A stretch of 64,000 bases of DNA from Dehalococcoidia bacterium (GTDB taxonomy: Bacteria; Chloroflexota; Dehalococcoidia; SHYB01): NCBI GenBank assembly GCA_965207995.1, contig OZ242299.1:1059533-1123532 (forward strand). Reading direction: 5' to 3'. Position numbers and translations under genes: made by a program. The notes beneath the pieces were generated by a model, which made no database searches, was not told the DNA's origin, and saw only the letters and a list, made by a program, of their open reading frames with translations. Of the stretch, positions 10,375-57,673 are shown piece after piece (position 1 is the first letter of the stretch; every line of letters begins with the position of its first letter).

Positions 10375-11565
10375 TCAAACGACGGCGACGGCGACGACCT
10401 GGAAGACCTGCTCCGGCCGCGCGTTCTGGTGGATGGTGAGCCCGGTCGCGGCGGGAAAGGCGTCGCCGAAGACGTCGCGGCGGACGGCGGCCAGACCCCG
10501 CACCTCGTTCTGCGCCGTCGGCGGCGTGCACTCCAGGGTGTACATGATATCGTCCACCCCGACGCCGGCCTCGGCGCAGATCGCGGCCACGTTGCGGTAG
10601 GCCTGGCGCGCCTGCTCGACGAGGTCGTACTTGTACACCTGGCTCTCGCCCGTCGTGTGGTCGATCGACGCCTGGCCGGAGATGTAGAGCAGGTTCCCCT
10701 TCTTGACCGCGGGCGCCGCCGTCATCTCGCGCCAGGAATCCTCCCAGCCGGACGGCACGATCTGCTCACGGCCGCCGCCGATAATCGCGGTGGCCTCGAT
10801 TTCGAGATGGCCGTGGGGCGAGAGCATGCGGTGGAAGTGCACGCTGCTGGAGGCCGGATAGGTTCCGCCGAAGCGCTGCTCGCGCAGCTTCCTCACCTCG
10901 GGATAGGTGACGGTAGCCTGCGGGTCCACGTAGTTCATCGTGTTGACCACGTCGCCGAACGAGGCGCCGGCGGCGGTAAGCACCTTCTCCATGCGGTCGT
11001 AGCACCACTCGGCCTGCGCGACGGTGTCGTTCGGCTCCAGCGTGATGACGCCCGTGACCCAGACCTTGTTGTCGACCTTGACCGCCGGCGCGTAGGTCAG
11101 ATCCTTGAAGCGCTCGAACTCGGGGCCGGGCGGGATGATGGCTTCCTTCTTTCCCTTGACCGCAATGGCGTTGATCTCGATGAGCGCGTCGGGCCGCAGT
11201 AGGCTATGCACCAACACCCCCGTCGAGGCCACGGGACTCTTGCCCATGTACTGCTCGCGGACGGCCGCGGTGCCGCGAAACTTGCCGAGACCGGGCGGCG
11301 CGATGTAGTCGGTCGTACGCACGATGTTGTCGTAGGTCATCCCCGCCGCTTCGAGCACGACCCCGATCTTCTCCCACGCCACCTTCGACTGCTCAACGAT
11401 GTCGCCCTCACAAAGGACGCGCCGCTTCTCCTCGTTGTAGCTGCTCGCAGTGTGGCCGGAGACGTAGACGACCCCGTCCTTCTCCGTTCCCAACGAGAAC
11501 GTGTAGCGGCGAAGGTCCAGCCAGGGGAACTTGTCGGGGTCGACCGGGATGACGTTTCTGGCCAT
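10375..11565 (-). CDS. triple-tandem RidA/YjgF/TdcF-family domain protein
   Basis: 396 aa split into three ~125-135 aa RidA-like units: ..VYVSGHTA..IEINAIAV / ..VWVTGVI..LEIEATAI / ..LYISGQAS..VFQVVAVAV. Confidence 0.8.
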   Translation of the reverse strand: MARNVIPVDPDKFPWLDLRRYTFSLGTEKDGVVYVSGHTASSYNEEKRRVLCEGDIVEQSKVAWEKIGVVLEAAGMTYDNIVRTTDYIAPPGLGKFRGTAAVREQYMGKSPVASTGVLVHSLLRPDALIEINAIAVKGKKEAIIPPGPEFERFKDLTYAPAVKVDNKVWVTGVITLEPNDTVAQAEWCYDRMEKVLTAAGASFGDVVNTMNYVDPQATVTYPEVRKLREQRFGGTYPASSSVHFHRMLSPHGHLEIEATAIIGGGREQIVPSGWEDSWREMTAAPAVKKGNLLYISGQASIDHTTGESQVYKYDLVEQARQAYRNVAAICAEAGVGVDDIMYTLECTPPTAQNEVRGLAAVRRDVFGDAFPAATGLTIHQNARPEQVFQVVAVAVV

Positions 11566-11640
11566 GGTGGGCGGCTCCTACGAAAGGGATCGGGGCGCGG
11601 AGTAGTCTACCGCACCGCTCAACGTGTCCGAAGCCGGCGG

Positions 11641-13053
11641 CTATTCCAGCGGCGGACGCCGCGTATGCCAACCGGCGGCCTGCTCGTAGGCGAATGCCAA
11701 GTTGAGGACACCGGCATCGTCGAAGGCACGACCGGCGATCTGCAGCCCCACCGGCAGCCCCTCGGAGAACCCGCAGGGAACGGTGGCCGCGGGCAGGCCG
11801 TTCGAGTTGAAGAGCCGGGTGATGCGAGAGAGGAGCATCCGCGAGGGAAACTCCTGGCCGCCCAGCGTCACCACGGGCGCGGCGTACGAGGGCGCGGTGA
11901 CGGGGCAGGTCGGGGTCATAAGGAAGTCGACGCGCTCCAAGACCCGCGCGATTTCGCGGTTCAGTGAGGCCCTCAGCTGGTTGGCCTTCGAGTAGTCCGC
12001 CGCCGTCACGAACAGCCCCGACTCGATGTGTATCCGCGTCACCGGATCGTAGTCGGCGCCCCGACTCAATACCGTCTCCCGATGAACCGCCGCCGCGTCG
12101 GCGGGGATGATCGTGCTCATCACCAAGCCATAGTCCTCCAGGCGCGGCACCGAGACCTCCTCGACCTCCACCCCCAGGCCTGCCACCTGCTCCAACGCGG
12201 CCCGCGTCAGGCGCTCCACCTCCGGCTCGATCAGGTCCCACACGTACTCGCGCAGCACCCCGACGCGGAGTCCGCGCACCTCACCCGTCAGACATTCCTC
12301 GTAGTTGGGGACGGGTGCGTCGGCCGAGGTCGAATCGAGCGGGTCGTGGCCAGCGATGGCCTGCAGCGTCGCCGCCGCGCCCTCGACGGTGCGGGCGAGC
12401 GGCCCGGCGTGGTCGAGCGACCATGAAAGCGGCGTCATGCCCCGGCGGCTCACCAGCCCGTAGGTGGGCTTCAGCCCGGCGAGGCCGCAGAGCGACGCCG
12501 GCACCCGAATCGAGCCGCCCGTGTCGCTGCCGAGGGAGGCGGCGCACTCGCCCGCCGCGACGCTCGCCGCCGACCCCGTGCTCGAGCCGCCGGGCATCCG
12601 CGAGAGGTCCCACGCATTGTGGACGTCGCCGTAGTGGGCGTTGCGGCCCTGTTCCCCGAAGGCGAACTCGGTCATCATCAGCTTGCCGATGATGATCGCG
12701 CCCGAGGCCTTCAGCCCCTCGACGACTGCGCTGTCGGCGGCGGGGACGCGGTCGGCGTCGATCTTGGAGCCGGAGGTGGTGCGGATGCCGGCGGTGTCGT
12801 AGAGGTCTTTGACCCCGACCGGGATGCCGTGCATCGTCCCGCGATACTCGCCGCGCGCCATCTCCGCCTCGGCCTGCTCCGCTGCTTGCTTCGCCTCGTC
12901 GCGCGCAACGGTGATGAACGCATTGACCTCGGGTTCGACCCGCTCGATGCGGTCCAGGAACGCGCCGACGACCTCGACGGGTGAGACCTGCCGCGAGCGC
13001 AGCAGCGCGCTCAGCTCGGGAATCGTACGGAGGCAGAGGTCGCCCACGCTCAT
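11641..13053 (-). CDS. amidase (amidase-signature family)
   Basis: GIPVGVKDLYDTAGIRTTSGSKI and GGSSTGSAASVAAGECAASLGSDTGGSIRVPASLCG contain the Ser-cisSer-Lys signature region. Confidence 0.9.
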   Translation of the reverse strand: MSVGDLCLRTIPELSALLRSRQVSPVEVVGAFLDRIERVEPEVNAFITVARDEAKQAAEQAEAEMARGEYRGTMHGIPVGVKDLYDTAGIRTTSGSKIDADRVPAADSAVVEGLKASGAIIIGKLMMTEFAFGEQGRNAHYGDVHNAWDLSRMPGGSSTGSAASVAAGECAASLGSDTGGSIRVPASLCGLAGLKPTYGLVSRRGMTPLSWSLDHAGPLARTVEGAAATLQAIAGHDPLDSTSADAPVPNYEECLTGEVRGLRVGVLREYVWDLIEPEVERLTRAALEQVAGLGVEVEEVSVPRLEDYGLVMSTIIPADAAAVHRETVLSRGADYDPVTRIHIESGLFVTAADYSKANQLRASLNREIARVLERVDFLMTPTCPVTAPSYAAPVVTLGGQEFPSRMLLSRITRLFNSNGLPAATVPCGFSEGLPVGLQIAGRAFDDAGVLNLAFAYEQAAGWHTRRPPLE

Positions 13054-13244
13054 CGCGTCGGCCCCGGCCGGAACACCAGCACCGGCTCTTCGCCGACGAC
13101 CTCGGCGGCCCGGAGCTTGTCCAACACCTCCCGCAGCGCCACGACGCTCGGGTAGAGGTCGGCGAGGTGATGATCGTCGGCGGTCAGGCCGGCGTCGGCG
13201 GCCAGCGCTCTGAAGTCTTCCAAAGTCAACTCGTCAGGGGGCAT
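13050..13244 (-). CDS. small (64 aa) amidase-associated protein, AtzG/GatC-like (DUF4089-like)
   Basis: ATG 13244 within track ORF 13050..13418. Its TGA overlaps the amidase ATG (ATGA), implying translational coupling. The C-terminus ...EEPVLVFRP resembles the AtzG-type ending as I recall it. Confidence 0.55.
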   Translation of the reverse strand: MPPDELTLEDFRALAADAGLTADDHHLADLYPSVVALREVLDKLRAAEVVGEEPVLVFRPGPTR

Positions 13245-13305
13245 CTCATCCTCCGCGGGTCGTGACGCTGCTATAGTAGCGTCTACCCTCCCCTTCGGCC
13301 CAATC

Positions 13306-14577
13306 ATGTCACGACCTCTCGCGGAACTGTTACGAGGCGTCCGGGTGATAGACCTGTCGCGAGGTCTCGCCGGCCCAAGCTGCACCAGGCTCATGGCCGA
13401 CCTGGGCGCCGAGGTCATTAAGGTCGAGCCTCCCGGCGGCGATCACACCCGTTCCTTCCAGCACCAGCGCGAGGGCCGCAGCGGTTACTTCATCCAGCAG
13501 AACGCCGGCAAGCGGGACATCTCCCTCGACCTCCGCACCGCCGAGGGCAAGGCCGTGCTCGACGAGCTGGTGTCGATCGGGGACGTCGTCGTCGAGAACT
13601 TCCGCCCCGGCGTCATGGCCAACCTGGGCTATGGATATGAGGACCTGCGGCGGCTCAACCCGTCCGTGGTCCTCTGCTCCATCTCGGCCTTCGGCCAGTA
13701 CGGGCCGTACTCCGAGCGGCGCGGCGGCGACTACAACATCCAGGCCCTCAGCGGCATGATGTGGATCAACGGCGACCCCGACGGCCCGCCCATGTGGACG
13801 GGCAACGCCTACTGCGACACAACCACCGGACTGCACGCCTACGGGGCCGCGGTCTCCGCGCTCTACAACCGGCTCCTGACCGGCCGCGGCGAGCACGTCG
13901 ACGTCGCGCTCATGGACTGCGCTATCTGGCAGCAGGAAATCACCTTCCAGGAGTACCTCCTCAGCGACGGCGCTATCGAGCCGACCCGGTCGGGCAGCGG
14001 CCGCACCGACAACGCCCCCGTGAACGTCTACCGCGGCAGGGACGGCTACATGGTCCTCGCCGCCATGAGCGACCCCGCTTGGACCTTGCTCACGGCGACC
14101 ATGGGCATGCCTGAGCTCGAGCACGACGAGCGGTTCGCTACCCGCTGGGACCGCGTCGAACGCATGCGGGAGCTCGACCGCATTATCGAAGGCTGGGTGT
14201 CGAGCTTCGACTCCGTCCAGGACGTCATCGACCTGCTGCTGTCGAAGGGGCTGATCTGCGGCAAGGTCCGCGACATTCCCGAGGTCGTCGCCGACCCCAA
14301 CACCGACGCCCGCGGCATGCTCATGGACATCGACGATCCCGTCATCGAAGCACCGGTCCGCGTCATGAACTCGCCGATGCGCTTCCACGCATCCACCGCA
14401 CGGCCGCGCGGCCCTGCGCCACTGTTGGGGCAGGACTGGGACGAGGTCTTATGCGGCCTCTTGGGAAGGAGCCGCGACGACGCACTGGCGCTAATCGGCA
14501 ACGGCGCGGCGCTCGTCGAGGACCGGGCGCTGCGTCCAATGCTGGCGCGCCTTGATGCCGACGCGGCCACGTCCTGA
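13306..14577 (+). CDS. family III CoA-transferase, paralog 3
   Basis: LRGVRVIDLSRGLAGPSCTRLMADLGAEVIKVEPPGGDHTRS. Asp-type segment YCDTTTGLHAYGAAVSAL. Confidence 0.88.
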   Translation: MSRPLAELLRGVRVIDLSRGLAGPSCTRLMADLGAEVIKVEPPGGDHTRSFQHQREGRSGYFIQQNAGKRDISLDLRTAEGKAVLDELVSIGDVVVENFRPGVMANLGYGYEDLRRLNPSVVLCSISAFGQYGPYSERRGGDYNIQALSGMMWINGDPDGPPMWTGNAYCDTTTGLHAYGAAVSALYNRLLTGRGEHVDVALMDCAIWQQEITFQEYLLSDGAIEPTRSGSGRTDNAPVNVYRGRDGYMVLAAMSDPAWTLLTATMGMPELEHDERFATRWDRVERMRELDRIIEGWVSSFDSVQDVIDLLLSKGLICGKVRDIPEVVADPNTDARGMLMDIDDPVIEAPVRVMNSPMRFHASTARPRGPAPLLGQDWDEVLCGLLGRSRDDALALIGNGAALVEDRALRPMLARLDADAATS

Positions 14578-46715: not shown

Positions 46716-48938
46716 TTACGAAGGAACCCCAATGCGGGAAGGCCACCAGTTCCACCGGCCGAACATCGACACCAGGGCCGGCACGATCAGCGTGCGTGTG
46801 ATGAACGTGTCGATCAGCACGCCGGCGGCAACGCCGAACCCGAGCTGCACCAAGTCCTGAAGCGGCAGGGTCGTCAGCGCCGAGAACGTGCCGGCGAGGA
46901 TGATGCCCGCCGACGTGATCACCGGGCCGGTGCGCGCCAGTGCATGGCGGGTCGCCTCCTCCAACGGGGCTTCCCGGGCCTCCTCGCGGATCCGGGACAT
47001 CAGATAGATGTTGTAGTCCACGCTCAGCGCGTTGAGGAACACGAACAGGAAGAACGGCACCGCCGGCCCAATGCCGGCATGACCCGCCAAGAAGACGAAC
47101 ACCCCGACGACAAGGCCGAGCGTGGCGAAGTAGGTGAACGCGATCGTAGCCATCAGATACAGCGGCGCGATCAGCGAGCGCAGCAGCAGGGCCAGCACCA
47201 CGCCGATGGCCAACAGGATGAGCGGGAGCACCACGAGCGAGTCGCGGTTGCCCGCGGTGCGGGTGTCGTAGGCCTCCGCGGTGTCCCCGCCGAGGAGCAC
47301 GCTTCCCGGAGGCAGGCCCACAGCCGCGGCGCGCTCCCGGACGAGGCTGCGCAGCTCGGGTACCGCGTCGAGCGCCTCCCGCGAGAAGGGGTTCGCCTCG
47401 AGTACGACGTCGATGCGCGCCGCGCCGCCATCGTCGGAGACGAACCGCCGCGCATTTGCCTCCGGCAGTTGCGAGGCGGGCGGCCCCGCGATACCGAGCG
47501 GTCGGCTCGGTCCGGACGCGTCGGCGACGCCCGGATGCTCGACCAGCCCCCACGTGATGGAGTCCAACTGCTCAAGCCCGCCGGCGTCGAGCGCATCGGC
47601 GCCCGGAGGCAGTGAGACATACAGCTGCGTTGGCGAGATCTCGCCCGCCGGGAAGCCGCTGCGCAACAGCTCGAAGCTGCGAACGGATTCCGTGTTGCTC
47701 GGCAGGCTCGCAAGCTGGTCGTAGTTGGCGCGGAACGGGACCAGGCCCGCCACCAGGACGCCGAGGCCCAGAACCGTCACCGCCAGCGTCACGACCGGCC
47801 GCCGCAGCACCGCCGCGCCGATCCTGCCGTAGGTGCTGCGCCGCCAGTCGACCTGCGGCGCAGCCGCCGTCTCCAACCGAGGCTGCATGGGCCAAAAGGC
47901 CCGCCGTCCGAAGATGGTCAGCACCGCGGGGATGAGTGTGAGCGCCGCCAGCATCATCACCGCCACGGCGATGGCGATGACCGGCCCGAGCGCCTGGTAG
48001 GAACCCAGCGTCGCCAGCCCGAGCGCGGCGCTCGCGACCAGGATCGTCGCCCCTGCCGACCCCACCGCGCCGCCGACGCCGCGCAGCGTGCGCCGCATCG
48101 CCTCGTGGCGGTCGTCATGCCGGGTCAGCTCTTCGCGAAAGCGCGCCGAGACGAACAGCACGTAGTCGGTCCCCGTGCCGAACAGCACCACGGTCATGAT
48201 GCCGATCGTCTGACCGGAAACGGGCAGATCGAACACCTGGGCCGACCAACCCCCCAAGGCGCTCGCGATCTGAAAGACGAGCCCCACACCCAGCAACGGG
48301 ACCGCCGCCATGATCGGCGAGCGGTAGATGATGATCAGCAGCACCAGCACCAGCAGCACGGTCACCAGCAGCAGCAGCGAATTGATCTGCGAGAACACGC
48401 CGATTAGGTCGACGAGCAGCCCGCCCGGACCGCCGACGGCTACCTCGGCGCCCGCCAAGTCATGAGCCGCCGAGCGGTCGCGGATCGCCTCCACCGTGTC
48501 GGCGAAGGGTTGCTCGCCCGGCTCCCCGGCAACCTCCACGAAGACGTACATCGTGGTGCCGTCGGCAGAGACCAGGCCGGACGGCTGACCCCCGGCCGGG
48601 TCGGGAGCCCGCACCTGGACCACGTTGTCCGGCGCCTCGGGGCTCGACAGCCAAGCCCCGAGGTCGGCCGCCGCCGCGTACGCCGGAGGCCCCAGACCCC
48701 CCGGTTCGCGAAAGACAACCAAGACCGGCGTCCCCGCCGACGAGAAGCGCTCCCGCCCAAGCTCGAACGCCCGCGTCGCCTCGGCGTCCTCCGGCAGGAA
48801 GAGCGCCTGCTCGTTCTCGCTGGCCTCTCCGAGTCCGGGAAGCTGCGAGATCAATAGCCCGGCCACGACGATCCACGCGACAAGGGTTACCCACTTGCCG
48901 CGTGGACTGGATACGAAGTCGGTGAGACGACCTAGCAC
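46716..48938 (-). CDS. MMPL-family (RND superfamily) membrane transporter
   Basis: 740 aa with two blocks of TM helices separated by soluble loops. N-terminus MLGRLTDFVSSPRGKWVTLVAWIVVAGLLISQLP and ...TGTDYVLFVSARFREEL / ...LSVDYNIYLMSRIREE motifs are typical of MmpL proteins. Confidence 0.85.
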   Translation of the reverse strand: MLGRLTDFVSSPRGKWVTLVAWIVVAGLLISQLPGLGEASENEQALFLPEDAEATRAFELGRERFSSAGTPVLVVFREPGGLGPPAYAAAADLGAWLSSPEAPDNVVQVRAPDPAGGQPSGLVSADGTTMYVFVEVAGEPGEQPFADTVEAIRDRSAAHDLAGAEVAVGGPGGLLVDLIGVFSQINSLLLLVTVLLVLVLLIIIYRSPIMAAVPLLGVGLVFQIASALGGWSAQVFDLPVSGQTIGIMTVVLFGTGTDYVLFVSARFREELTRHDDRHEAMRRTLRGVGGAVGSAGATILVASAALGLATLGSYQALGPVIAIAVAVMMLAALTLIPAVLTIFGRRAFWPMQPRLETAAAPQVDWRRSTYGRIGAAVLRRPVVTLAVTVLGLGVLVAGLVPFRANYDQLASLPSNTESVRSFELLRSGFPAGEISPTQLYVSLPPGADALDAGGLEQLDSITWGLVEHPGVADASGPSRPLGIAGPPASQLPEANARRFVSDDGGAARIDVVLEANPFSREALDAVPELRSLVRERAAAVGLPPGSVLLGGDTAEAYDTRTAGNRDSLVVLPLILLAIGVVLALLLRSLIAPLYLMATIAFTYFATLGLVVGVFVFLAGHAGIGPAVPFFLFVFLNALSVDYNIYLMSRIREEAREAPLEEATRHALARTGPVITSAGIILAGTFSALTTLPLQDLVQLGFGVAAGVLIDTFITRTLIVPALVSMFGRWNWWPSRIGVPS

Positions 48939-48994: not shown

Positions 48995-50836
48995 CTAGGA
49001 CTCCTCCGGCGGGATGAGCACCGAGTCGATCACGTGGATCGTCCCATTCGCCGCCTCGATGTCCGTGATCAGCACCCGCGCCTCGTTCAGCAGCACCGTG
49101 TCGCCCTCGACCGTGATGTTCACCGCATCTCCCTGCACCGTCGTCACGGAGTCCAGCGTCACCACGTCCGCCGCCTTCGCGTTCCCCGCCACCACGTGGT
49201 ACAGCAGGACTTCAGTAAGGGCGGGAATGTCGCCCAGCAGCGCCTCCACCGTCCCCTCCGGCAGCGCCGCGAACGCCTCGTCCGTGGGCGCGAACACCGT
49301 GAACGGCCCCTCGCCCTGCAGCGTCTCGACCAAGTTGGCCGCCTGCAGCGCCGCCACGAGCGTCTCGAACCGACCGTCGCCCACCGCGACATCTACGATG
49401 GTGCCAAAGTCTTCCGGCGGAATGAGCACCGAGTCGATCACGTGGATCGTCCCGTTCGCCGCCTCGATGTCCGTGATCAGCACCCGCGCATCGTTCAGCC
49501 GTACCGTCTCGCCCTCGACCGTGATGTTCACCGCATCTCCCTGCACCGTGGTCACGGAGTCAAGCGTCACCACGTCCGCCGCCTTCGCGTCCCCCGCCAC
49601 CACGTGGTACAGCAGGATGTCAGTGAGGGCGGGGATGTCGCCCAACAGCGCCTCCACCGTCCCCTCCGGCAGCGCCGCGAACGCGTCGTCGGTCGGCGCG
49701 AACACCGTGAACGGCCCTTCGCCCTGCAGCGTCTCGACCAAGCCGGCCGCCTGCAGCGCCGCCACCAGCGTCTCGAATCGACCATCACCCACGGCAATGT
49801 CTACGATGGTGCCGAGGTCTTCGGGCGGGATGAGCACCGAGTCGATCACGTGGATCGTCCCATTCGCCGCCTCGATGTCCGTGATCACCACCCGCGCCTC
49901 GTTCAGCAGCACCGTGTCGCCCTCGACCGTGATATTCACCGCATCTCCCTGCACCGTGGTCACCGAGTCAAGCGTTACCACGTCCGCCGCCTTCGCGTTC
50001 CCCGCTACCACGTGGTACAGCAGGATCTCAGTAAGCGCGGGGATGTCGCCCAACAGCGCCTCGACCGTCCCCTCCGGCAGCGCCGCGAACGCCTCGTCCG
50101 TCGGCGCGAAGACCGTAAACGGTCCTTCGCCCTGCAGCGTCTCCACCAGTCCGGCCGCCTGCAAAGCTGCGACCAGCGTCTCGAACCGGCCGTCGCCCAC
50201 GGCGATATCCACGATGGTGCCAAAGTCTTCCGGCGGAATGAGCACCGAGTCGATCACGTGGATCGTCCCGTTCGCCGCCTCGATGTCCGCGATCACCACC
50301 CGCGCCTCGTTCAGCAGCACCGTGTCGCCCTCGACCGTGATCGTAACCGCGTCTCCCTGCACCGTGATCACGGAGTCCAGCGTCACCACGTCCGCCGCCT
50401 TCGCGTTCCCCGCCACCACGTGGTACAGCAGGATGTCCGTCAGCGCGGGGATGTCGCCCAACAGCGCCTCCACCGTTCCCTCCGGCAGCGCCGCGAACGC
50501 GTCGTCCGTGGGCGCGAACACCGTGAACGGTCCCTCGCCCTGCAGCGTCTCGGCCAAGCCGGCCGCCTGCAACGCAGCCACCAGCGTCTCGAACCGCTCG
50601 TCGCCCACCGCGATATCCACGATCGTCCCAGGCTCCGGCTCCGGCGTTGCCGTAGGCACGGGTGTTGCCGTGGGCGCCGGTGTTGCCGTGGGCGGCAGCG
50701 GCGTTGGATCGCTGCTACCGCAGGCAGCCACACCAATGGCAAGCAGGCCTGCCGCGACGAGCCCCACCAGCCACCGGCGAACGCTCGGCCCCCGCTCTAA
50801 GGCAGCTCCAAATCGATCGGTCCTGTTCCTGAACAT
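48995..50836 (-). CDS. lipoprotein with four tandem fasciclin (FAS1) domains
   Basis: Start [10 protein letters not shown] at 50836. Signal/lipobox [14 protein letters not shown] and a PT tether, then 4 x 136 aa with [14 protein letters not shown]...[17 protein letters not shown]1 motifs. Confidence 0.88.
48998..50629 (-). repeat. 4 x 408-bp near-identical tandem coding repeat (one FAS1 domain each)
   Basis: The landmark atgagcaccgagtcgatcacgtgg recurs at 49014, 49422, 49830 and 50238, an exact 408-bp period. Units differ at only a few percent of positions by eye. Confidence 0.9.
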
Positions 50837-50869
50837 GTCACCCCTCCGATCCGCCCTTGGTTCAGATTG

Positions 50870-50894
50870 CCGACTATCCTCATCGATAGGTCGG
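50870..50894. promoter_or_regulatory. imperfect inverted repeat, candidate operator
   Basis: CCGACTATC-ctcatc-GATAGGTCGG (9 of 10 arm positions pair, with one bulge), 34-58 nt upstream of the fasciclin start. Confidence 0.35.
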
Positions 50895-50917
50895 TATAGG
50901 CGGTATATAGTCCGCAT

Positions 50918-50947
50918 AGTATATGAGTATATGCAACATACCGTCAA
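50918..50947 (-). promoter_or_regulatory. candidate promoter TTGACG-N18-TATACT for the fasciclin-MMPL operon
   Basis: Reverse strand reads ttgacg (50947-50942), an 18-nt spacer and tatact (50923-50918). It lies in an AT-rich island with four GTATA(T) copies. Confidence 0.35.
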
Positions 50948-50977
50948 CCCTGCCGGTGGGCCGACTTCCTAGGCGAG

Positions 50978-51904
50978 ATGAATATAATCTACAAACCTGC
51001 TATATTCCCTCCCATGGACCAGGGCTTGGAACAAAGCGCTCAGACGGCACTGCTTAAGGACAGATACGAGCAGGCCTTGATGGCCGGTGACGGCGACGAG
51101 GCCCGCAGGATCGTCGCCGACGCCCTCGACCGGGGGACCGACCCCCCGACCATCTACTTCGGCATCTTTGCGCCCGCGCTGGTCGCGATAGGGCACGCCT
51201 GGCGAAGGGGACAGCTGACCATCGCGGCGGAGCACCACGCCACCAGCATCACCCTCCAGCAAATCGCCCACGTCGGAGAGGTCTGGCGCCTCAACCGCAA
51301 GAAGGACATCGGCGCGAGCGTGGTCGTCGCGGCCGTGGAAGGCGAAATGCACGCGGTCGGTGTGAGGATGATCGCCGACCTCTTCGACATGGACGGCTGG
51401 CACGTCTCCGACCTGGGGCAGAACAACCCCACGGATGATCTCGTCGACCTCGTCGGCGAACGCAAGCCCGATCTGGTGATCCTGTCGCTCTCCCAGCCCG
51501 ACCTCATCCCCGTGGCGGCGAGGGCTGCGGCGACGCTCACGGCCCTCGAGCATAGGCCCGCCGTCTTCGTTGGCGGTCCCGGCCTCTCCCAAGAGCCGCA
51601 GGCAGGCCAAGTCGCAGCCGACTTGGTCTCCTCATCCCCCTTCGAGGCACTGCGCGTGGGGAGGCAGCTCGCCGGCATCGACAAAGAGCACTTAACGCTG
51701 GAGGACCACCTCAGCGCGCTGGGACATCGCATCCTCGCCTTGCGCAGGCAGCGCGGATGGAGCCAGCAGGAGCTCGCGCTCCGGGCCGGGCTCGACCGCA
51801 CCTACCTCAGCGCCGTCGAGAAGGGCAAGCAGAACATCACGATCGGAGCGGCGCTGAAGATTGCGGATGCGCTGGGTGCCTCGCTCTCCGACCTGATCGA
51901 TTGA
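50978..51904 (+). CDS. cobalamin-binding (CarH/LitR-like sensor module) protein with C-terminal XRE-family HTH
   Basis: HAWRRGQLTIAAEHHAT (W-x9-E-H), VEGEMHAVG (ExHxxG), then ~41 aa to ILSLS and ~26 aa to VGGPG. C-terminal LRRQRGWSQQELALRAGLDRTYLSAVEKGKQNITIGAALKIADALG. ATG 51014 is an alternative start, since TATAAT lies at 50983-50988. Confidence 0.8.
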   Translation: MNIIYKPAIFPPMDQGLEQSAQTALLKDRYEQALMAGDGDEARRIVADALDRGTDPPTIYFGIFAPALVAIGHAWRRGQLTIAAEHHATSITLQQIAHVGEVWRLNRKKDIGASVVVAAVEGEMHAVGVRMIADLFDMDGWHVSDLGQNNPTDDLVDLVGERKPDLVILSLSQPDLIPVAARAAATLTALEHRPAVFVGGPGLSQEPQAGQVAADLVSSSPFEALRVGRQLAGIDKEHLTLEDHLSALGHRILALRRQRGWSQQELALRAGLDRTYLSAVEKGKQNITIGAALKIADALGASLSDLID

Positions 51905-51968: not shown

Positions 51969-52045
51969 TGGTACCCCTGGCGCGACTCGAACGCGCGACA
52001 CACGGTTTAGGAAACCGTTGCTCTATCCACCTGAGCTACAGGGGC
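51969..52045 (-). tRNA. tRNA-Arg (anticodon CCT)
   Basis: Reverse complement GCCCCTG-TA-GCTC-AGGTGGATA-GAGC-A-ACGGT-TTCCTAA-ACCGT-GTGTC-GCGCG-TTCGAGT-CGCGC-CAGGGGT-A-CCA folds as a 77-nt cloverleaf. CCA is encoded. Positions 1:72 form a G:U pair. Confidence 0.9.
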
Positions 52046-52086: not shown

Positions 52087-52617
52087 CTACTTCCGGGGCT
52101 CTATCCCCCGCTCCTTCATCATGTTCTTGATGAAGGGAAGCAGGCCGCCCGCCTCCATGATCTGCATCGGCGGGCTCCCCTCGGGCCACGCCTCGGCCTG
52201 CAAGACCGTGCCCTTGGTCAGGTTCTTCGTCTCCCCGGTCAGCAGACTTACCTCGCCCTCGTCGCCTTCGTCGAAGGCCTCGGAGACGCCGGGGCACCAC
52301 AGCGTCGGCATCCCGATGTTCACCGAGCTGCGCAGGAAGATGCGCGACGTCGACTCCGCCAGTACCGCCGCGATGCCGTTGAGCTGCAGCATGAGCGCGC
52401 CGTTCCGGCTCGAGCCGCAGCCGAAGTTCCGCCCCGCCACGATGAGGTCGCCCGGCTGCACCTCGTCGACCCAGCCCGGCCGGTTGGTGGAGAAGCAGTA
52501 CGGGGCGGCGTCCTCGTCGCTCAGCTTCCTCGCCAAGACGATGTGCCCCGGCATCATGAGGTCCGTGGCGACGTTGTCGCCGAACTTCCATACCCTGCCT
52601 TTGAAGATCGTCTGCAT
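52087..52617 (-). CDS. aconitase-family dehydratase small subunit (LeuD/HacB-like)
   Basis: Start MQTIFKGRVWKFGDNVATDLMMPG at 52617 inside a longer track ORF. GRNFGCGSSRNGA motif. Confidence 0.85.
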   Translation of the reverse strand: MQTIFKGRVWKFGDNVATDLMMPGHIVLARKLSDEDAAPYCFSTNRPGWVDEVQPGDLIVAGRNFGCGSSRNGALMLQLNGIAAVLAESTSRIFLRSSVNIGMPTLWCPGVSEAFDEGDEGEVSLLTGETKNLTKGTVLQAEAWPEGSPPMQIMEAGGLLPFIKNMMKERGIEPRK

Positions 52618-52628
52618 CGAGGGCGCCC

Positions 52629-53894
52629 CTAGAGGAATTTTCTCGGGTCGGTGATGTATCCGGTCACCGCCGACGCCGCAACCACCGCCGGATTCGAAAG
52701 ATAGACAAAGGCCTCCGGGCTCCCCTGCCGGCCCATGAAGTTCCGGTTCGTCGACGAGATCGACACCTCGCCGTCGCCGAGCACGCCCATGTGACCCCCG
52801 AAGCACGGGCCGCACGTCGAGTGCTCGATGTTCGCCCCCGCGTCGGCGAAGACCTCCCAAAGCCCCTCCTTCAGGCACTCCCGCCAGATCGCCTGCGACG
52901 CCGGGCTGCACAGCAGCCGCACCTCGGGGTGCACCTCGCGGCCCTTCAGAATCCGCGCCGCCGCCCGGAAGTCTTCCATGCGGGCGTTGGTGCACGACCC
53001 GATCAGCGCCTGGTCGATCTTGATCTTCTCCGGCGCCAGGTCACCGATGGACTTCACGTTCGACGGATCGTGCGGGCACGCTACCTGCGGCTCCAGGTCC
53101 GTCACGTCGAGCGTGAGACGCTCGGCGTAGTGCGCGTCCTCGTCAGGGAAGACGTGCTCATAGGAGCGGTCAACCCGCCCCTCCAGAAATTCGTCCACCT
53201 TCTCGTCGGCCTCGAAGATGGCGAACTTCGCCCCCATCTCGACGCCCATGTTCGAAATCGTCCACCGGCTCGAAAGCGACATCGCCTCCGCGGCCGGGCC
53301 CCGGAACTCCATCGACTTGTAGAGGCCGACCTCGCTCCCCCACGTCCCCAGGATCTTCAGCACGATGTCCTTCCCGAAGATGAAGTCGTCGACCCCCGCA
53401 TACGTCCCTTCGAGGCGGACCTCCATGCTTTCCGGAACGCGGAACCAATACTCGCCGAAGATCAGGCAGAGCAGGCTGTCCATCGCCGCGTTCGTCGCGC
53501 AGGCGTTGAAGACGCCCCCGGACGTCGAGTGGGAGTCCGGCATGGCGATCAGGTCGCCCGGCGCGATCATCCCGTTTTCCGGATAGAGTTGGTGCAGGAT
53601 GCCGTGGCGCCCGTACTCCCAGTAGTTCTTGATCCCGAAGTCCTTCACCGCCTGCCGCAGCTTTATGACCTGGTTGGCCGCCACCACGGAGGGCGGCGGC
53701 GCCAGGTGGTCCTCGACCATGTAGACCCCGTCGGGATTCGCCAGCTCGGTCACGCCGAGCTCGTAGAGCTGCGCCAGTTGGGTGTTCGCCGATGTCGCCG
53801 TCGCGTCGACGCGGCACCAGAGGAACTCTCCCGGCTTCACCTCGTCCCGGTCGCCGTGAGCGGCGAGTATCTTCTCCGCTATGGTCATTCCCAT
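52629..53894 (-). CDS. aconitase-family dehydratase large subunit (LeuC/HacA-like)
   Basis: Start MGMTIAEKILAAH at 53894. Fe-S ligand motifs IGSCTNARMED and STCGPCFGGHMG. Confidence 0.88.
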   Translation of the reverse strand: MGMTIAEKILAAHGDRDEVKPGEFLWCRVDATATSANTQLAQLYELGVTELANPDGVYMVEDHLAPPPSVVAANQVIKLRQAVKDFGIKNYWEYGRHGILHQLYPENGMIAPGDLIAMPDSHSTSGGVFNACATNAAMDSLLCLIFGEYWFRVPESMEVRLEGTYAGVDDFIFGKDIVLKILGTWGSEVGLYKSMEFRGPAAEAMSLSSRWTISNMGVEMGAKFAIFEADEKVDEFLEGRVDRSYEHVFPDEDAHYAERLTLDVTDLEPQVACPHDPSNVKSIGDLAPEKIKIDQALIGSCTNARMEDFRAAARILKGREVHPEVRLLCSPASQAIWRECLKEGLWEVFADAGANIEHSTCGPCFGGHMGVLGDGEVSISSTNRNFMGRQGSPEAFVYLSNPAVVAASAVTGYITDPRKFL

Positions 53895-54036
53895 GGGCCG
53901 TTCCTCAATTCCGCGGTGCGGGCCGCGCATCCGCCGGCGCGTGTAAGATACCCGCCGTGGCGTTCGGTTCGGAGAGCCAACAGTTTAGCAACAAGAGCGA
54001 TAGACCACCAACGTTGGTGGAGGGGAAGGTAGCGGC

Positions 54037-54996
54037 GTGAAGCAGACGACACGGCTCCAGGAGCTCTTCCATAGCGGCGAGGTCTTCATCATCCCCGGAG
54101 GGGCCTGCGCCCTCCACGCGCGCATCTACGAGGCGGCGGGCTACGACTGCGCCTACATGTCCGGCGCGCAGACCAGCGCCCACATCCTCGGCATCCCCGA
54201 CGCCGGCCTCATCACCATGACCGAGATGGTCGAGAACGCGGGGCGCATGGCCGCCGCCGTTGACATACCCGTCATCTCCGACGCCGACCAGGGGTTCGGC
54301 AACGCCATCAACGTCCGCCGCACCGTGGCCTCGTTCATCCGTGCCGGCGTCGCCGGCATCCACATCGAAGACCAGCCGATGCCCAAGCGGTGCGGCAACG
54401 TCATGGGCAAGACCGTTATCCCCGTCGAGGAGGCCGTCGGCAAGTACCAAGCCGCCGTCGACGCCAAGAACGACCTCGATCCCGACTTCGTCGTCATCGC
54501 TCGCTGCGACGCCCGGGGCGCCGCCGGCGGCACCGTCGACGAGGCCATCCGCAGGCTCCGCGCCTACAAGGAGACCGGCGTCGACGTCCTTTATTTCGAG
54601 CAGCCCCTGAGCCTCGACGAGATCCGCACCGTCCGCGCCGCCGTCGACGGCCCCCTCATGGCGACCACCCACCTCCTCCAGCCCCCGCCAAGCCCCGAAG
54701 AGCTCGGCGCCGCCGGCCTCTCCGCCGTCTTCATCCCCGGCCTGATCCTCGAGCCGTCCCTGAAAGCCGCGTGGGAGTACGCCCACGATTTCAAGGCGCG
54801 CGGCTACGAGGCGCAGCGGGAGCTGGCCGAGAAGGAGTGGCGCTACCCCATGCCCCACGTCTTCGACGTCGTCGGCTTCCCCAAGGTCTTCGAGTGGGAG
54901 GAGAAGTACCTGCCCGCGGAAGACGTCCAGCAGCGGTACGAGGGGTCGGTCGGCGGCTACGACCCGCGGGCTTCCGCGCGGGCCGGCGGGGGTTAG
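54037..54996 (+). CDS. isocitrate lyase/PEP mutase superfamily lyase, paralog B
   Basis: GTG start. VKQTTRLQELF (same N-terminus as paralog A), SDADQGFGNAINVRRTV..IHIEDQPMPKRCGNVMGK..IARCDAR. Confidence 0.85.
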   Translation: MKQTTRLQELFHSGEVFIIPGGACALHARIYEAAGYDCAYMSGAQTSAHILGIPDAGLITMTEMVENAGRMAAAVDIPVISDADQGFGNAINVRRTVASFIRAGVAGIHIEDQPMPKRCGNVMGKTVIPVEEAVGKYQAAVDAKNDLDPDFVVIARCDARGAAGGTVDEAIRRLRAYKETGVDVLYFEQPLSLDEIRTVRAAVDGPLMATTHLLQPPPSPEELGAAGLSAVFIPGLILEPSLKAAWEYAHDFKARGYEAQRELAEKEWRYPMPHVFDVVGFPKVFEWEEKYLPAEDVQQRYEGSVGGYDPRASARAGGG

Positions 54997-55505
54997 CTCA
55001 GCAGGGCGACGACGGCGGACGGAAGGTCGGCGGTGCTGCGCTCGATCGGCGGCATCTCCTCGCCGTTCCTGGCCGCCTCGTCCAGCCCCTTGTCGAGGGC
55101 CGCGAGCACACGGTCGAGGCTCGCCATTTCCTCGGCGTCCAGATACCGGGTAACGGTCCGCACGCGGCTGAGCGTGCGCTCGTGGACACGTTCCTGCAGC
55201 GTCTTGCCCTCGGCCGTGAGCTTGACGAGAACCAGCCGCCGGTTCGTGGGGTCTTCCAGCCGCTCCGTCAGTCCCATCGAGACCAGCTTGTCCACCATGC
55301 CCGTCGCCGCGCCGCGCGTGACCCCCGTGAGGCGCGCAATCTGGGTCATGAACATCGGCCCGTTGCTGAGCTCGCGAAGGACCTTCAACTGGCTGACGGT
55401 AAGAGAGTCGACGGCCCCCGCCCCTTCAAACTCGGCGGTGAGGAAGCTCACGAGCCTGCTCACCGTGGCACGGAGCCGTTCGTCGATGTCGTGGTGGATG
55501 ACCAA
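54993..55505 (-). CDS. MarR-family transcriptional regulator
   Basis: LTVSQLKVLRELSNGPMFMTQIARLTGVTRGAATGMVDKLVSMGLTERLEDPTNRRLVLVKLTAEGK is a winged-HTH MarR pattern. Confidence 0.88.
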   Translation of the reverse strand: MVIHHDIDERLRATVSRLVSFLTAEFEGAGAVDSLTVSQLKVLRELSNGPMFMTQIARLTGVTRGAATGMVDKLVSMGLTERLEDPTNRRLVLVKLTAEGKTLQERVHERTLSRVRTVTRYLDAEEMASLDRVLAALDKGLDEAARNGEEMPPIERSTADLPSAVVALLS

Positions 55506-55591: not shown

Positions 55592-55620
55592 TTGACAGTG
55601 CAGGTGTCGTGCGGTAGCTT
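55592..55620 (+). promoter_or_regulatory. sigma70-like promoter TTGACA-N17-TAGCTT for SBP-3, overlapped by an AT-rich pseudo-palindrome (candidate MarR operator)
   Basis: ttgaca 55592-55597, a 17-nt spacer and tagctt 55615-55620. Immediately upstream is tagatgataaacctttcattatctt (55569-55593), an imperfect palindrome. Confidence 0.45.
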
Positions 55621-55717
55621 GGCACGACCCTGCATCGGGGTGGGACGCCGGTGCTCCCGGGCTCCGCTTACCCGATGGCTACGAACCTTCGCTTGCAGAA
55701 AGGTAGGGAGGGTTGGC

Positions 55718-57673
55718 ATGAAGACTCTACGACGCAGGTTCACTCGCCGCTTCGCTAGTCTCGCGGTCTTGGGCGTGATCATCGCCCTGGTTGCGGCCGC
55801 GTGCGCATCGGAAGGGCCGCCTGGCCCCGCAGGACCGGCGGGCCCAGCAGGGCCGGCAGGACCCGCAGGACCGGCAGGACCCGCGGGACCGCAGGGGCCC
55901 GAAGGACCGCAGGGCGGCGACGCCATGCCCGCGCCGACGGCGACGCCGGTGCCCCCTACCGCGACCCCCGAGCCCCCGAAGGCGATGTTCATGACGCCTG
56001 ACGAGCTCATACCGGAGGGTCTAGAGCAAGCCCACCCGCTCATCTACCAGTACCACTGGAGCCGCTTGGCGCCGCCCGCCGCCGGCCCGCCGGACACCGG
56101 CGGAACGCTACGGCTCAGCATCTCCTTCGAGCCGAATAACTGGTCGTCCTTGGAAGGCAACTTCGGCACCCTGATCTACGGCACCCTGGTCTACAACGGG
56201 CTGGTCCGCGCCGACATGCGCCTGTCCGAGGCGCTGAAGGGTAACGACAACCTCCGGGCCCTCGTCGTCGCCTGCGACCTCTGCGAGAGCTTTGAGGTCA
56301 AGTCGCCGTCCCAATACGTCTTCAACCTGCGCGAGGGCGCCCAGTGGCACCAGACCGACCCGCTGAACGGCAGGCCGATCACCGCGGCCGACGTCAAGTC
56401 AGCCTATGACCGGTACCTCGACACCGGCGCCCTTCGGCAGTACGGCCAGTTCCAGACCGTCGAGAGCATCGAGGCTCCCGACGACAGCACGGTCGTCATC
56501 AACCTCAAGTTCCCGCGCTCCGGCTTCCTCGAAGCGATTACCGCCCCGGCGTTCATGATCCTGCCTCCTGAGGCCTTCGATAGAGAGGGCGGGGCAGCGG
56601 TGGAGCCGCCGCTCGGTTCCGGCTCCTTCGTCTTGAAGGAGCACCAGCGCGGCGCGCGGCTCGTCTTCGAGAGCAATCCAAACTACTTCAAGACCGACGA
56701 GTTCGGCATCCAAATCCCGTACCTCGACCAGATCGAAGTCACCGCCCTGGACGCCACCGCGCGGTCGGCTGCCTGGAGGACGGGCAACCTCGACCAGACC
56801 CTGGCGCTCAACAATGCGACGGTGACGTCGCTCCTCCAGGAAGAGACCGTCCCCGACACGGCCAACCTCCGCATCGAGGAGGCGAACACCGCGGGCGCCT
56901 CCTTCTTCCAGATGCAGCTCCGCGAGGCGCCCTTCAACGACATCCGGGTCCGCCGGGCCCTGTCGATGGCGATCGACCGAGAGCTCATGATCGAGCTCGC
57001 CCATCAGGTCGGCTACTGCCAGCCGCAGGCGATTCCAACGTGGTGGCAGGGTTTGAGCTACCCGCCGGCCTGCGGTGAGGCCGCATGGACCGAGTACAAC
57101 CCCGACGCCGCGCGCGACCTCCTCGCCCAGGCCGGCTTCGGGCCGGATAACCCGCTCGAGTTCACCTTGACCGGGCATGGCACGGGCGGCGAAATCAATC
57201 CGCGCTTCATCGCCATGTTCGAGGTCGCCCAGCAGTCGTGGGAGGACATTGGCGTCAACGTCAACATTGTCACCATCGAGCGGACCCTATTGGAGAGCCA
57301 ACTCCGTAGTAGGGAATTCACCGGCATGATCGGCGGCACGGGCGTCGGCGGCGGCAACGACTTGGACTCCTACGCTCAGAAGGTCCGAAGCGATGGGCCG
57401 GAGAACTTCTCCGGCATCAACGACCCTGAGATCGACCGCTTGGTCGACCTCCAGCAACGGAGCGTCGACCAAGCGGAGCGCCGCCAAGCGGCCACCGCCC
57501 TGGCCCAGCGGTTGGACGACCAGGTCTACCTGCTCGCGTTGACCTCGGGGTACTTCGGCGAGTTCACCCGCCCCTACATCCAGAACTGGGCCACCCACGC
57601 CCTCTACCTCTGGATGCACGGGTTCGGTTCGCACGCAATGGAGAACACTTGGATTCTTGAGTCGGCCCGCTGA
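55718..57673 (+). CDS. ABC transporter substrate-binding lipoprotein (family 5), SBP-3, with collagen-like tether
   Basis: RBS aggtagggagg precedes ATG 55718. MKTLRRRFTRRFASLAVLGVIIALVAAAC lipobox, GPP(GPA)7GPQGPEGPQ, a PT linker and a family-5 body. Confidence 0.88.
   Translation: MKTLRRRFTRRFASLAVLGVIIALVAAACASEGPPGPAGPAGPAGPAGPAGPAGPAGPQGPEGPQGGDAMPAPTATPVPPTATPEPPKAMFMTPDELIPEGLEQAHPLIYQYHWSRLAPPAAGPPDTGGTLRLSISFEPNNWSSLEGNFGTLIYGTLVYNGLVRADMRLSEALKGNDNLRALVVACDLCESFEVKSPSQYVFNLREGAQWHQTDPLNGRPITAADVKSAYDRYLDTGALRQYGQFQTVESIEAPDDSTVVINLKFPRSGFLEAITAPAFMILPPEAFDREGGAAVEPPLGSGSFVLKEHQRGARLVFESNPNYFKTDEFGIQIPYLDQIEVTALDATARSAAWRTGNLDQTLALNNATVTSLLQEETVPDTANLRIEEANTAGASFFQMQLREAPFNDIRVRRALSMAIDRELMIELAHQVGYCQPQAIPTWWQGLSYPPACGEAAWTEYNPDAARDLLAQAGFGPDNPLEFTLTGHGTGGEINPRFIAMFEVAQQSWEDIGVNVNIVTIERTLLESQLRSREFTGMIGGTGVGGGNDLDSYAQKVRSDGPENFSGINDPEIDRLVDLQQRSVDQAERRQAATALAQRLDDQVYLLALTSGYFGEFTRPYIQNWATHALYLWMHGFGSHAMENTWILESAR
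55814..55912 (+). repeat. coding (Gly-X-Y)11 collagen-like repeat
   Basis: Codons ggg ccg cct / ggc ccc gca / gga ccg gcg ... read directly: 11 uninterrupted GXY triplets followed by GGDAMP, as in SBP-2. Confidence 0.9.

Follow-up and report, generated by a model that had tools for sequence, protein, structure and literature searches.

The regulator described here is encoded in a 64,000-nucleotide stretch of a Dehalococcoidia genome, hereafter the window, and is divergent from a gene for a lipoprotein with fasciclin (FAS1) domains (Table 1). The fasciclin gene has its true ATG at 50836-50834, with a Shine-Dalgarno sequence (GGAGGGG) upstream, and is followed on the same strand, after a gap of 56 bp, by a gene for an MMPL-family transporter; this synteny is retained in the related loci L001, L011 and L063, and the two genes probably form one operon. 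No B12 biosynthesis or transport gene adjoins the regulator in the window, and no carotenoid genes lie nearby. The reading frame on which the first-pass annotation was based, 50978-51904, does exist and contains every string quoted from it, but translation probably starts at Met13 (51014) and not at Met1, since homologues (292-302 aa) align from Met13 onwards and the ATG of Met1 falls inside 34 bp that were inserted into the upstream operator in this lineage only.

Table 1. Features of the regulator locus, in window coordinates; residues are numbered from Met1.
Feature	Position	Strand	Details
MMPL-family transporter	46716..48938	-	Pfam MMPL, E 1.9e-121; directly downstream of fasciclin gene
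Fasciclin lipoprotein, four FAS1 domains	48995..50836	-	Predicted target; Pfam Fasciclin x4, E 2.4e-160
Candidate regulator promoter	50883..50911	+	TCGATA, 17-nt spacer, TATAGT; 9/12 matches; weak
Candidate operator O3, palindromic GCGGTATATAGTCCGC core	50897..50918	.	PWM 9.5 bits on one strand, 9.4 on the other
Predicted sigma-70-type promoter of fasciclin operon	50918..50947	-	TTGACG, 18-nt spacer, TATACT
Left half of canonical operator O1 (ACCGTCAAC)	50940..50948	+	Distance to O3 43 bp, matching relatives
34-bp insertion splitting O1	50949..50982	.	Between motif positions 9 and 10; intergenic alignment
Longest regulator ORF	50978..51904	+	308 aa, from Met1
Right half of O1 (TATAATCTACAAA)	50983..50995	+	Part of 22-mer 50974-50995
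Regulator gene	51014..51904	+	296 aa from Met13; probable true CDS
B12-binding_2 four-helix bundle	aa 27-94; 51056..51259	+	Pfam PF02607, E 2.8e-13, 50.3 bits (cut-off 23)
G72xxW75 and E85-H86	codons 51191-51235	+	In B12-binding_2 bundle; light-type signature
B12-binding Rossmann domain	aa 114-213; 51317..51616	+	Pfam PF02310, E 1.6e-16, 60.7 bits (cut-off 32.1)
G122-E-M-H125-A-V-G128	codons 51341-51361	+	In Rossmann domain; H125 predicted lower axial His
G147xxxP151 (G147-Q-N-N-P151)	51416-51430	+	In Rossmann domain; GxxxP loop
C-terminal Cro/C1 (XRE) HTH (HTH_3)	aa 253-306; 51734..51895	+	Pfam PF01381, E 3.4e-15, 56.2 bits (cut-off 23)

The three Pfam matches of the regulator are far beyond chance. 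They place a B12-binding helical bundle, a Rossmann domain and a C-terminal helix-turn-helix (HTH) in the order that the first-pass annotation had given, all above their thresholds, and they bear out the XRE type that it had assigned to the last of these, which also passes the gathering score of PF13560 (HTH_31; 44.5 against 27). The same search returns no MerR match, leaving the C-terminal HTH as the only DNA-binding domain. Its recognition-helix region, GLDRTYLSAVExGxQN, is nearly invariant in homologues of 35-98% identity, and the domain matches the PDB entries of C.AhdI, SinR and HipB with E values of 1e-8 to 1e-6.

Light-responsive cobalamin domains carry a signature defined by SignatureFinder as GxxW, EH, GxxH and GxxxP, of which the Wx9EH cap and GxxxP set them apart from other cobalamin domains (PMC11796333). 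All four elements are present in the regulator, and their conservation was counted in 110 homologues spanning 35-98% identity. Both the Gly and the Trp of GxxW (G72-H-A-W75) occur in all 110, as does the His of the E85-H86 pair, while the Glu is found in 102/110 and is replaced by Gly in 8/110; H125 of GxxH, the presumed lower axial ligand, is again present in 110/110, and in the GxxxP loop, which aligns with LGPNTP of 8JBS, P151 is kept in 110/110 and G147 in 107/110. The G199-G200 pair is likewise invariant (110/110), and S170 is among the residues conserved in 109-110 of the 110. The two motifs first read by eye, W75-x9-E85-H86 and E123-x-H125-x-x-G128, are where they were said to be, and the hand counts of 41 residues from G128 to S170 and 26 between S172 and G199-G200 are correct. 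The spacing of the classical cobalamin motif therefore holds, although its 'SxL' element reads S170-L171-S172, with Ser in the third position. The signature Trp is followed by Arg76, and an equivalent of His132 of Thermus thermophilus CarH (TtCarH) is absent (His occupies this position in 33/110 homologues); as His132 gives TtCarH its bis-His light state, the regulator must have a different light-state chemistry, as CtMerR does.

An AF2 model of the regulator (pLDDT 90.7) shows a four-helix bundle capping the Rossmann domain as in CarH (TM 0.79-0.81 to the B12 domains of 8JBS and 8C31), then a low-pLDDT hinge and five helices, with a long helix (aa ~236-258) preceding the HTH. The best Foldseek matches to this model are all B12 photoreceptors. 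By sequence the nearest solved B12 domain is that of CtMerR from Chloracidobacterium thermophilum (8JBS, dark; 8JBT, light; PMC11796333), the top structure match at E 9.7e-18, with which the regulator has in common GxxW, EH, GxxH, GxxxP and an Arg directly behind the signature Trp; the alignment pairs W-R-R-G...E-H, the axial His and GxxxP of the two proteins residue for residue, and superposition on 8JBS gives TM ~0.8 (0.79-0.80 by Foldseek, rmsd 2.6-3.9 Å). The superposition on CarH that had been proposed as a check gives TM 0.81 to the B12 domain of TtCarH (8C31), and by alignment end-points the equivalence to W131/E141/H142/H177 fits; like the other computational checks put forward there, this one favours the first-pass annotation. 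Photocobilins are matched with a Foldseek E of ~1e-14 and a sequence E of 1.1e-16, and the AerR/PpaA fold (7TE2) at TM 0.72; the methyltransferase corrinoid protein MttC reaches just 0.47-0.51.

CtMerR, an experimentally shown AdoCbl-dependent, light-responsive tetramer (PMC11796333), carries an N-terminal MerR-type DNA-binding domain, whereas the regulator has no MerR domain and ends in an XRE HTH; its predicted operators, which are paired pseudo-palindromes, are a further difference. With CarH/LitR (TtCarH 5C8D/5C8E/8C31, Myxococcus CarH, Bacillus and Streptomyces LitR) it has in common the two-part B12 module, the Wx9EH cap and the axial His of ExHxxG, as well as a presumed one-component repressor logic and, in its family, photolyase and photoprotection genes as predicted targets, but the domain order is reversed and an XRE domain takes the place of the MerR winged helix. 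Because the MerR domain is absent and the regulator scores only 64.2 bits on the NCBIfam CarH model NF052513 (cut-off 400), with the B12 part alone matched, it is outside the CarH/LitR family. Photocobilins (SasPcob 8J2W/8J2X, AbDPcob 8J2Y; PMC10979010) likewise place an N-terminal light-type B12 module before an output module, but theirs is a photoglobin that binds biliverdin and is in some cases joined by a diguanylate cyclase, where the regulator has a DNA-binding HTH; its C-terminal 65 aa are HTH_3, with no globin-like region in Pfam or the AF2 model, and the rmsd of ~15 Å to photocobilins indicates that only the B12 part matches. The AerR/PpaA antirepressors also have the B12-binding fold and tie light and B12 to gene control, but they stand alone without a DNA-binding domain, work through CrtJ/PpsR and differ in upper-ligand chemistry.

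The architecture had been called unusual, which is apt for its domain order and its DNA-binding fold, both different from those of CarH, but not for its frequency: a GTDB genome scan finds a B12-binding module with a C-terminal XRE domain in at least 181 species-level genomes, and the HTH fusion is kept in ~118 sequence clusters. The ~180 hosts are mostly uncultured Chloroflexota. That the architecture lacked characterisation was also correct as far as our literature search extends, which found no paper characterising a protein with a B12 domain and a C-terminal XRE domain; a 2024 survey does state, in general terms, that light-type B12 domains occur with an HTH domain attached at one terminus or the other (PMC11796333).

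Across the family a conserved pseudo-palindromic site of 18-22 bp (TGTCAAnTATAnTCnACA) precedes the regulator gene by ~40 bp, at -38 to -41 from the start in most related loci, and overlaps predicted -35, -10 or start regions. A second, inverted site is found 31-32 bp away in at least 12 loci, against a background chance of 0.6%. Intact canonical operators are seen, for example, in L009, with three sites in 9885-9975, and in L033, with two sites 32 bp apart in 9885-9945. A site matrix (PWM) built solely from distant loci and seeded upstream of regulators gives 31 matches in 3,840 bp ahead of the regulator genes of the close group, compared with 2 in 607,688 bp elsewhere, and it is from this co-occurrence that we assign the pseudo-palindrome to the regulator as its predicted site. 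The HTH resembles those of the Cro/C1 repressors C.AhdI and C.Esp1396I (1Y7Y, 3CLC), SinR and HipB, and paired-operator repressors of this kind usually bind with one dimer on each of two neighbouring pseudo-palindromes, a mode that fits the paired sites seen here. These Cro/C1 repressors, however, are small and without a sensor domain, while oligomerisation of the regulator is predicted to come from its cofactor-bound B12 module.

Other explanations of the upstream blocks were considered and set aside. As mere sigma-70 boxes they would not be expected to behave as they do: inverted pairs recur before unrelated genes, with three pairs ahead of several such genes in the single genome of locus L033, and they track the regulator across phyla, so that a transcription-factor site fits better. 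The operator of CarH reportedly consists, in the CarH-DNA structure paper, of three tandem 11-bp direct repeats (nAnnTnnACAn); the spacing of our site does not fit such a repeat, and we treat the ACA that the two share as coincidence. We also rejected an intergenic RNA element, as Rfam at gathering thresholds finds only the tRNA in the 64 kb, and no cobalamin riboswitch.

In the window itself the sites are weak and the canonical operator is broken. The top PWM match (12.3 bits) is the 22-mer 50974-50995, which starts at the canonical -40 from the Met13 ATG and includes the right half of O1, the left half being separated from it by the 34-bp insertion; both halves retain the canonical geometry. 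The insertion, which holds the Met1 ATG, is shared only by the window and L001, a relative with 98% identity. The idea that it is a repeated mobile element was rejected, since a search tolerating up to 8 substitutions turns up no second copy in the window. O3 (9.5 bits) is one of just two loci in the 64 kb to reach 9 bits or more; no other part of the intergenic alignment is as well conserved (with GCGG..TAT..C..CA invariant), and at each of the two predicted promoters O3 overlaps the -10 element together with the start region. Given the split in O1, control of the fasciclin operon and the regulator in this lineage probably runs mostly through O3. The fasciclin promoter, identified by consensus match alone, has 10/12 matches against 0.1 expected in shuffles, and its equivalent in L009 has 11/12; at the position corresponding to the regulator promoter, relatives have TTGACG-17-TAGCAT, and in L011 the consensus scan found no promoter. 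The left half of the site doubles as a -35 element, and in the window its reverse complement in O1 is that of the fasciclin promoter (TTGACG, 50947-50942).

The positions of the sites suggest what the regulator may control. In close members, including that of the window, the site falls on the promoter of the divergent fasciclin lipoprotein (and MMPL) operon; of the 33 loci with a FAS1 gene, 32 have it divergent to the regulator, and sites scoring 12 bits or more occur within 300 bp in 26. The predicted targets in the window genome are thus this operon and the regulator gene itself. In Mycobacterium kansasii, fasciclin and MmpL genes are light-induced (PMC9861118). In distant members, pairs of sites are found ahead of DICT-photolyase, SDR-DUF2867 and YbgA genes as well, and there the predicted targets are photolyase-containing photoprotection clusters.

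We consider it fairly probable, by analogy with characterised systems, that the regulator is a one-component AdoCbl-dependent photoreceptor repressor inactivated by light. The mechanism we propose starts from the observed domains, signature residues, fold, family and conserved sites with their positions, and is modelled on CarH and CtMerR, from which we infer AdoCbl binding, photolysis, the oligomeric state, repression over activation and the identity of the protein at the sites. In the dark, the N-terminal B12 module of helical bundle and Rossmann domain would take up adenosylcobalamin, with His125 as lower axial ligand and the adenosyl group enclosed by the Trp75/Glu85-His86 cap and by Pro151 of a neighbouring subunit. 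Binding would drive the formation of head-to-tail dimers and probably a tetramer, which would offer pairs of C-terminal HTHs to the pseudo-palindromes over promoter elements, usually two or three sites on one face of the DNA. Light from UV to green would cut the Co-C bond, loosen the oligomer, free the DNA and turn the target genes on. That the factor is light- and/or B12-responsive, as the first-pass annotation held, is still something we infer, strengthened by the photolyase-cluster targets and the cobT/cobS neighbours in relatives.

Those neighbours also favour a different, though in our view unlikely, role for the regulator as a sensor of cobalamin availability, which would bind AdoCbl or another cobalamin and repress when B12 is plentiful, as a protein counterpart of the cobalamin riboswitch, with light having no physiological part. 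In 8 related loci cobT and cobS follow the regulator and cobU is nearby, bringing in genes of nucleotide-loop assembly and salvage; corrinoid salvage is common among Dehalococcoidia, some of the hosts, many of them uncultured, may live in the dark, and the window has no cobalamin riboswitch. The family nevertheless keeps the light-type Wx9EH cap (Glu in 102/110) and GxxxP (PMC11796333), its distant members have the operator ahead of photolyase, YbgA and SDR-DUF2867, which are genes of light damage and not of B12, and the targets in the window, fasciclin and MMPL, have no B12 link. Moreover, AdoCbl-bound proteins are all intrinsically light-labile.

We give still less credence to a B12-independent XRE repressor of the surface-protein operon, in which the B12-like module would serve oligomerisation or another ligand, as in Myxococcus CarA. 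CarH paralogues that do not need B12 are described (PMC9304148), the signature Glu is Gly in 8/110 members, and in the window the regulator has no B12 gene beside it. Against this, the axial His, the Trp, the cap His, the Pro of GxxxP, the GG pair and S170 persist in 109-110 of 110 sequences that are as little as 35% identical, which is hard to explain without a cofactor; the fold is closest to cofactor-bound photoreceptor structures, and in 8 loci the regulator has genes for B12 salvage beside it. A mis-fused or mis-annotated corrinoid carrier of a methyltransferase, which the JGI name of several members ('methanogenic corrinoid protein MtbC1 / XRE regulator'), weak NCBIfam matches to MtgC, MtbC and MtaC models and the classical motif spacing (S-x-x and GG) might suggest, is effectively refuted by scores far under the cut-offs (TIGR02370, 49 against 215.3; MtgC, 52 against 370), by the low TM to MttC and by a conserved neighbourhood without methyltransferase partner genes, and the HTH fusion recurs in too many clusters and genomes to be an assembly artefact.

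To our knowledge, the characterised B12-dependent light-switch transcription factors (CarH, LitR, CtMerR) all use an N-terminal MerR domain. If the AdoCbl-dependent photoreceptor reading is true, wiring the sensor to a C-terminal XRE domain would show the B12 light module to be a portable input, and the family would test if light-controlled oligomerisation alone can gate an unrelated DNA-binding fold. We suggest tentatively, and with less assurance than the photoreceptor reading itself, that the regulator may found a second class of B12-based light-sensing transcription factors, non-MerR and with the sensor ahead of the XRE output, acting as a tetramer on paired pseudo-palindromic operators, controlling a cell-surface adhesion module by light and usable as an optogenetic green-light switch; the last would be a repressor/operator pair orthogonal to CarH. 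The predicted operator (TGTCAAnTATAnTCnACA, in pairs 31-32 bp apart) and the predicted regulons are testable in vitro despite the uncultured hosts. For the organisms, it would be a fasciclin lipoprotein and MMPL adhesion module, and not pigments or DNA repair, that is light-controlled in marine, sponge- or coral-associated Chloroflexota, and the family as a whole suggests that Dehalococcoidia and other Chloroflexota, which are rarely deemed light-responsive, may be able to perceive light, with photolyase clusters or surface fasciclins as the output.

The protein joins a predicted B12 sensor to a DNA-binding domain, as the first-pass annotation had proposed: all three Pfam domains score well over their gathering cut-offs and stand in sensor-then-XRE (Cro/C1 helix-turn-helix) order, the reading frame exists with every peptide string originally quoted from it, and the motifs W75-x9-E85-H86 and E123-x-H125-x-x-G128 are both present. 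The classical cobalamin-motif spacing holds, with 41 residues between G128 and S170 and 26 between S172 and G199-G200, but the middle element reads S-L-S, not S-x-L. Since homologues are 292-302 aa long and their alignment begins at Met13, translation probably starts there (51014) and not at Met1, from which residues are numbered here; the Met1 ATG is an in-frame upstream codon created by, and lying within, a lineage-specific 34-bp insertion.

A 2024 study found that four elements, GxxW, EH, GxxH and GxxxP, set light-responsive cobalamin domains apart from enzyme and carrier ones, and validated this signature by spectroscopy and by crystal structures (8JBS, 8JBT) of CtMerR from Chloracidobacterium thermophilum (PMC11796333). 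The window protein has all four (G72xxW75, E85-H86, G122xxH125 and G147xxxP151). Among 110 aligned full-length homologues (35-98% identity) G72, W75, H86, H125, P151 and G199-G200 are each invariant, S170 is kept in 109 and E85 in 102, while eight members, sponge Caldilineaceae among them, have Gly at position 85. Position 76, directly after the signature Trp, is Arg, as in CtMerR, and is His in just 33 of the 110; the Thermus thermophilus protein TtCarH has His132 there, the source of its bis-His light state, which the window protein lacks. Because position 76 is mostly not His and position 85 is Gly in eight members, the alignment suggests that light-state chemistry varies within the family.

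CtMerR is also the top solved-structure match by sequence (E 9.7e-18), with W-R-R-G...E-H, the axial His and G-x-x-x-P all in register; on end-points alone, W131/E141/H142/H177 of TtCarH fit if a 4-residue length difference sits between cap and axial His. An AlphaFold2 model built from 25 family members is confident (pLDDT 90.7, pTM 0.71), and its top PDB matches are B12 photoreceptors without exception (photocobilins at E about 1e-14). Superposition on the B12 domain of TtCarH, a check suggested at first pass, gives TM 0.81 (rmsd 3.2 Å), and on that of CtMerR 0.79-0.80 (2.6-3.9 Å), against only 0.47-0.51 for the corrinoid carrier MttC.

The family is moderately widespread. About 118 clusters in a search of 5.8 billion proteins share the three-domain architecture, named at source just 'helix-turn-helix domain-containing protein' or 'MtbC1/XRE regulator', and a pattern-limited scan of one genome per GTDB species, a lower bound, yielded at least 181 relatives. 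These belong chiefly to MAGs of Dehalococcoidia and other Chloroflexota, sponge Caldilineaceae included, with scattered members in Acidobacteriota, Bipolaricaulia, Fraserbacteria and Candidatus Uabimicrobium; the Dehalococcoidia MAG locus L001 is 98% identical and shares the window's gene order, which places the window in that lineage. Some genomes carry two paralogues (loci L007 and L057 in OX638325.1; L034 and L056 in CAZVRK01), and at L073 two copies in opposite orientation flank SDR-DUF2867 and YbgA genes. Family-wide, the recognition region of the HTH (GLDRTYLSAVExGxQN) hardly varies, and a shared DNA target is therefore predicted.

A candidate operator, nnTGTCAAnTATAnTCnACAnn, is an 18-22 bp pseudo-palindrome common to the regions upstream of the regulators, beginning 38-41 bp ahead of the aligned start codon in most loci. 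In a non-circular test, a matrix built from distant loci alone (35-46% identity, other neighbouring genes) gave, at a threshold of 14 bits, 31 matches within the 120-bp upstream stretches of 32 close-group regulators (3,840 bp in all) and only 2 in the other 607,688 bp. At least 12 distant loci have a second, inverted copy 31-32 bp upstream, and in the close group further sites lie at distances of 26 and 43-46 bp; by chance, 0.6% of such spans would hold a second site scoring 10 bits or more. With a spacing of three helical turns, a pair of pseudo-palindromes provides four half-sites, as a tetramer of HTH-bearing subunits would require. Predicted sites overlap predicted promoter elements, which favours repression: at distant locus L033 they lie over the spacer, the -10 and the start region of TTGACA-17-TAACAT, and at L009 the left half-site, read in reverse complement, forms the -35 of a strong predicted divergent promoter (TTGACA-17-TATACT, 11/12 consensus matches). 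Operator-like sequence (e.g. CTTGTGGAATATGTTCAACAAA, 19 bits) also occurs within the regulator coding sequence at +420 from the start in the distant loci L033, L038, L041, L047 and L049, either as an internal site or as a by-product of codon conservation.

In the 64-kb window, sites of at least 9 bits occur at two loci only, both in the 180-bp fasciclin-regulator intergenic region, where both predicted promoters overlap the palindromic site (Table). The canonical site is split by the 34-bp insertion precisely between motif positions 9 and 10. The window and L001 copies of the insertion differ at 6 of 34 bases, and no second copy was found in the window.

Table. Features of the regulator, its operator region and the divergent genes (window positions unless marked aa)
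Feature	Position	Strand	Details
Regulator ORF	50978-51904	+	308 aa
B12-binding_2	aa 27-94		Pfam, E 2.8e-13
B12-binding	aa 114-213		Pfam, E 1.6e-16
HTH_3	aa 253-306		Pfam, E 3.4e-15
MMPL-family transporter gene	46716-48938	-	directly downstream of fasciclin gene
Fasciclin gene	48995-50836		four FAS1 domains
Predicted regulator promoter	50883-50911		weaker
Candidate palindromic site	50897-50918		GCGGTATATAGTCCGC; most conserved block of intergenic alignment
Predicted fasciclin promoter	50947-50918		TTGACG-18-TATACT; 10/12 consensus matches
Left half of split canonical site	50942-50948		CGTCAAC; canonical 43 bp from palindromic site
34-bp insertion	50949-50982		window and L001 only; absent from every other relative
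Second candidate site (at least 9 bits)	50974-50995
Right half of split canonical site	50983-50993		TATAATCTACA; site start at canonical -40 from Met13

In 32 of 33 FAS1-containing loci, every close relative of the window among them, the regulator has a multi-domain fasciclin lipoprotein gene divergently upstream, and in 26 of the 33 a site scoring 12 bits or more falls within 300 bp of the fasciclin start; where Caldilineaceae have a gene between the two, the site remains at the fasciclin gene. FAS1 domain number ranges from 1 to 6 across related loci, and 49005-50630 of the window's gene comprises 4.0 tandem copies of a 408-bp unit, 91% alike. A longer antisense frame (49014-50972, +, 652 aa) was rejected as a high-GC artefact. 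The fasciclin-MMPL pairing recurs in L001, L011 and L063, and there is precedent for such an operon being under light control, since light-induced genes of Mycobacterium kansasii include fasciclin-domain and MmpL genes (PMC9861118). Downstream, a tRNA-Arg (CCT) gene (51969-52045, -) lies 65 bp past the regulator stop codon on the opposite strand, with no terminator-like hairpin found between them. Genes for the small and large subunits of an aconitase-family protein, for a PEP-mutase/isocitrate-lyase-family protein and for a MarR regulator (52087-55505) make up a metabolic cluster of their own, in which no operator-like site occurs; in a family-5 solute-binding protein (55592-57673, +) the signal/lipoprotein region is followed by a collagen-like repeat of Gly-Pro-Ala/Gly-Pro-Gln (GPAGPAGPAG...).

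Paired sites in the distant members stand ahead of gene clusters for DNA photolyase, a DICT-domain protein, an SDR with DUF2867, YbgA (DUF523 plus DUF1722), a FabI-like protein and an epimerase-SRPBCC fusion, which together make up a classic photoprotection set. At eight loci (L052, L053, L057, L069, L071, L074, L078, L079) cobT and cobS come after the regulator, and cobU and an inositol-monophosphatase-family gene are close by (about 10900-14000 of those loci); this linkage to B12 salvage ties the family directly, at the genomic level, to cobalamin nucleotide-loop assembly.

The first-pass interpretation, a light- and/or B12-responsive transcription factor, is supported. From the analogy with CarH and CtMerR and the site geometry, we infer as the probable mechanism an AdoCbl-dependent repressor, which would oligomerise in the dark, bind paired operators through its XRE domains and be released from DNA by light. 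The cobTS linkage favours a sensor of B12 availability with no role for light, yet the photoreceptor-specific signature and predicted photolyase targets make that unlikely. Independence of B12, as in CarA, is highly improbable given that the cofactor-contacting residues are invariant, and a methyltransferase corrinoid protein is rejected on scores, fold and context.

Although the proposed mode of working resembles that of CarH, LitR and CtMerR, the regulator falls outside that family: it lacks their MerR domain, its domain order is reversed, its operator type differs and its CarH model score is 64 against a cut-off of 400. Nor is it a photocobilin, since it has no photoglobin domain. Light-type B12 domains have been reported with HTH and other domains attached at either end (PMC11796333), and complex B12 photoreceptors of this sort are said to 'lack functional characterisation' (PMC10979010); in the literature searched we found no characterisation of a B12 domain with a C-terminal XRE. 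For this family the present analysis contributes a testable operator prediction, a set of predicted regulons and the disruption of the operator in one lineage.
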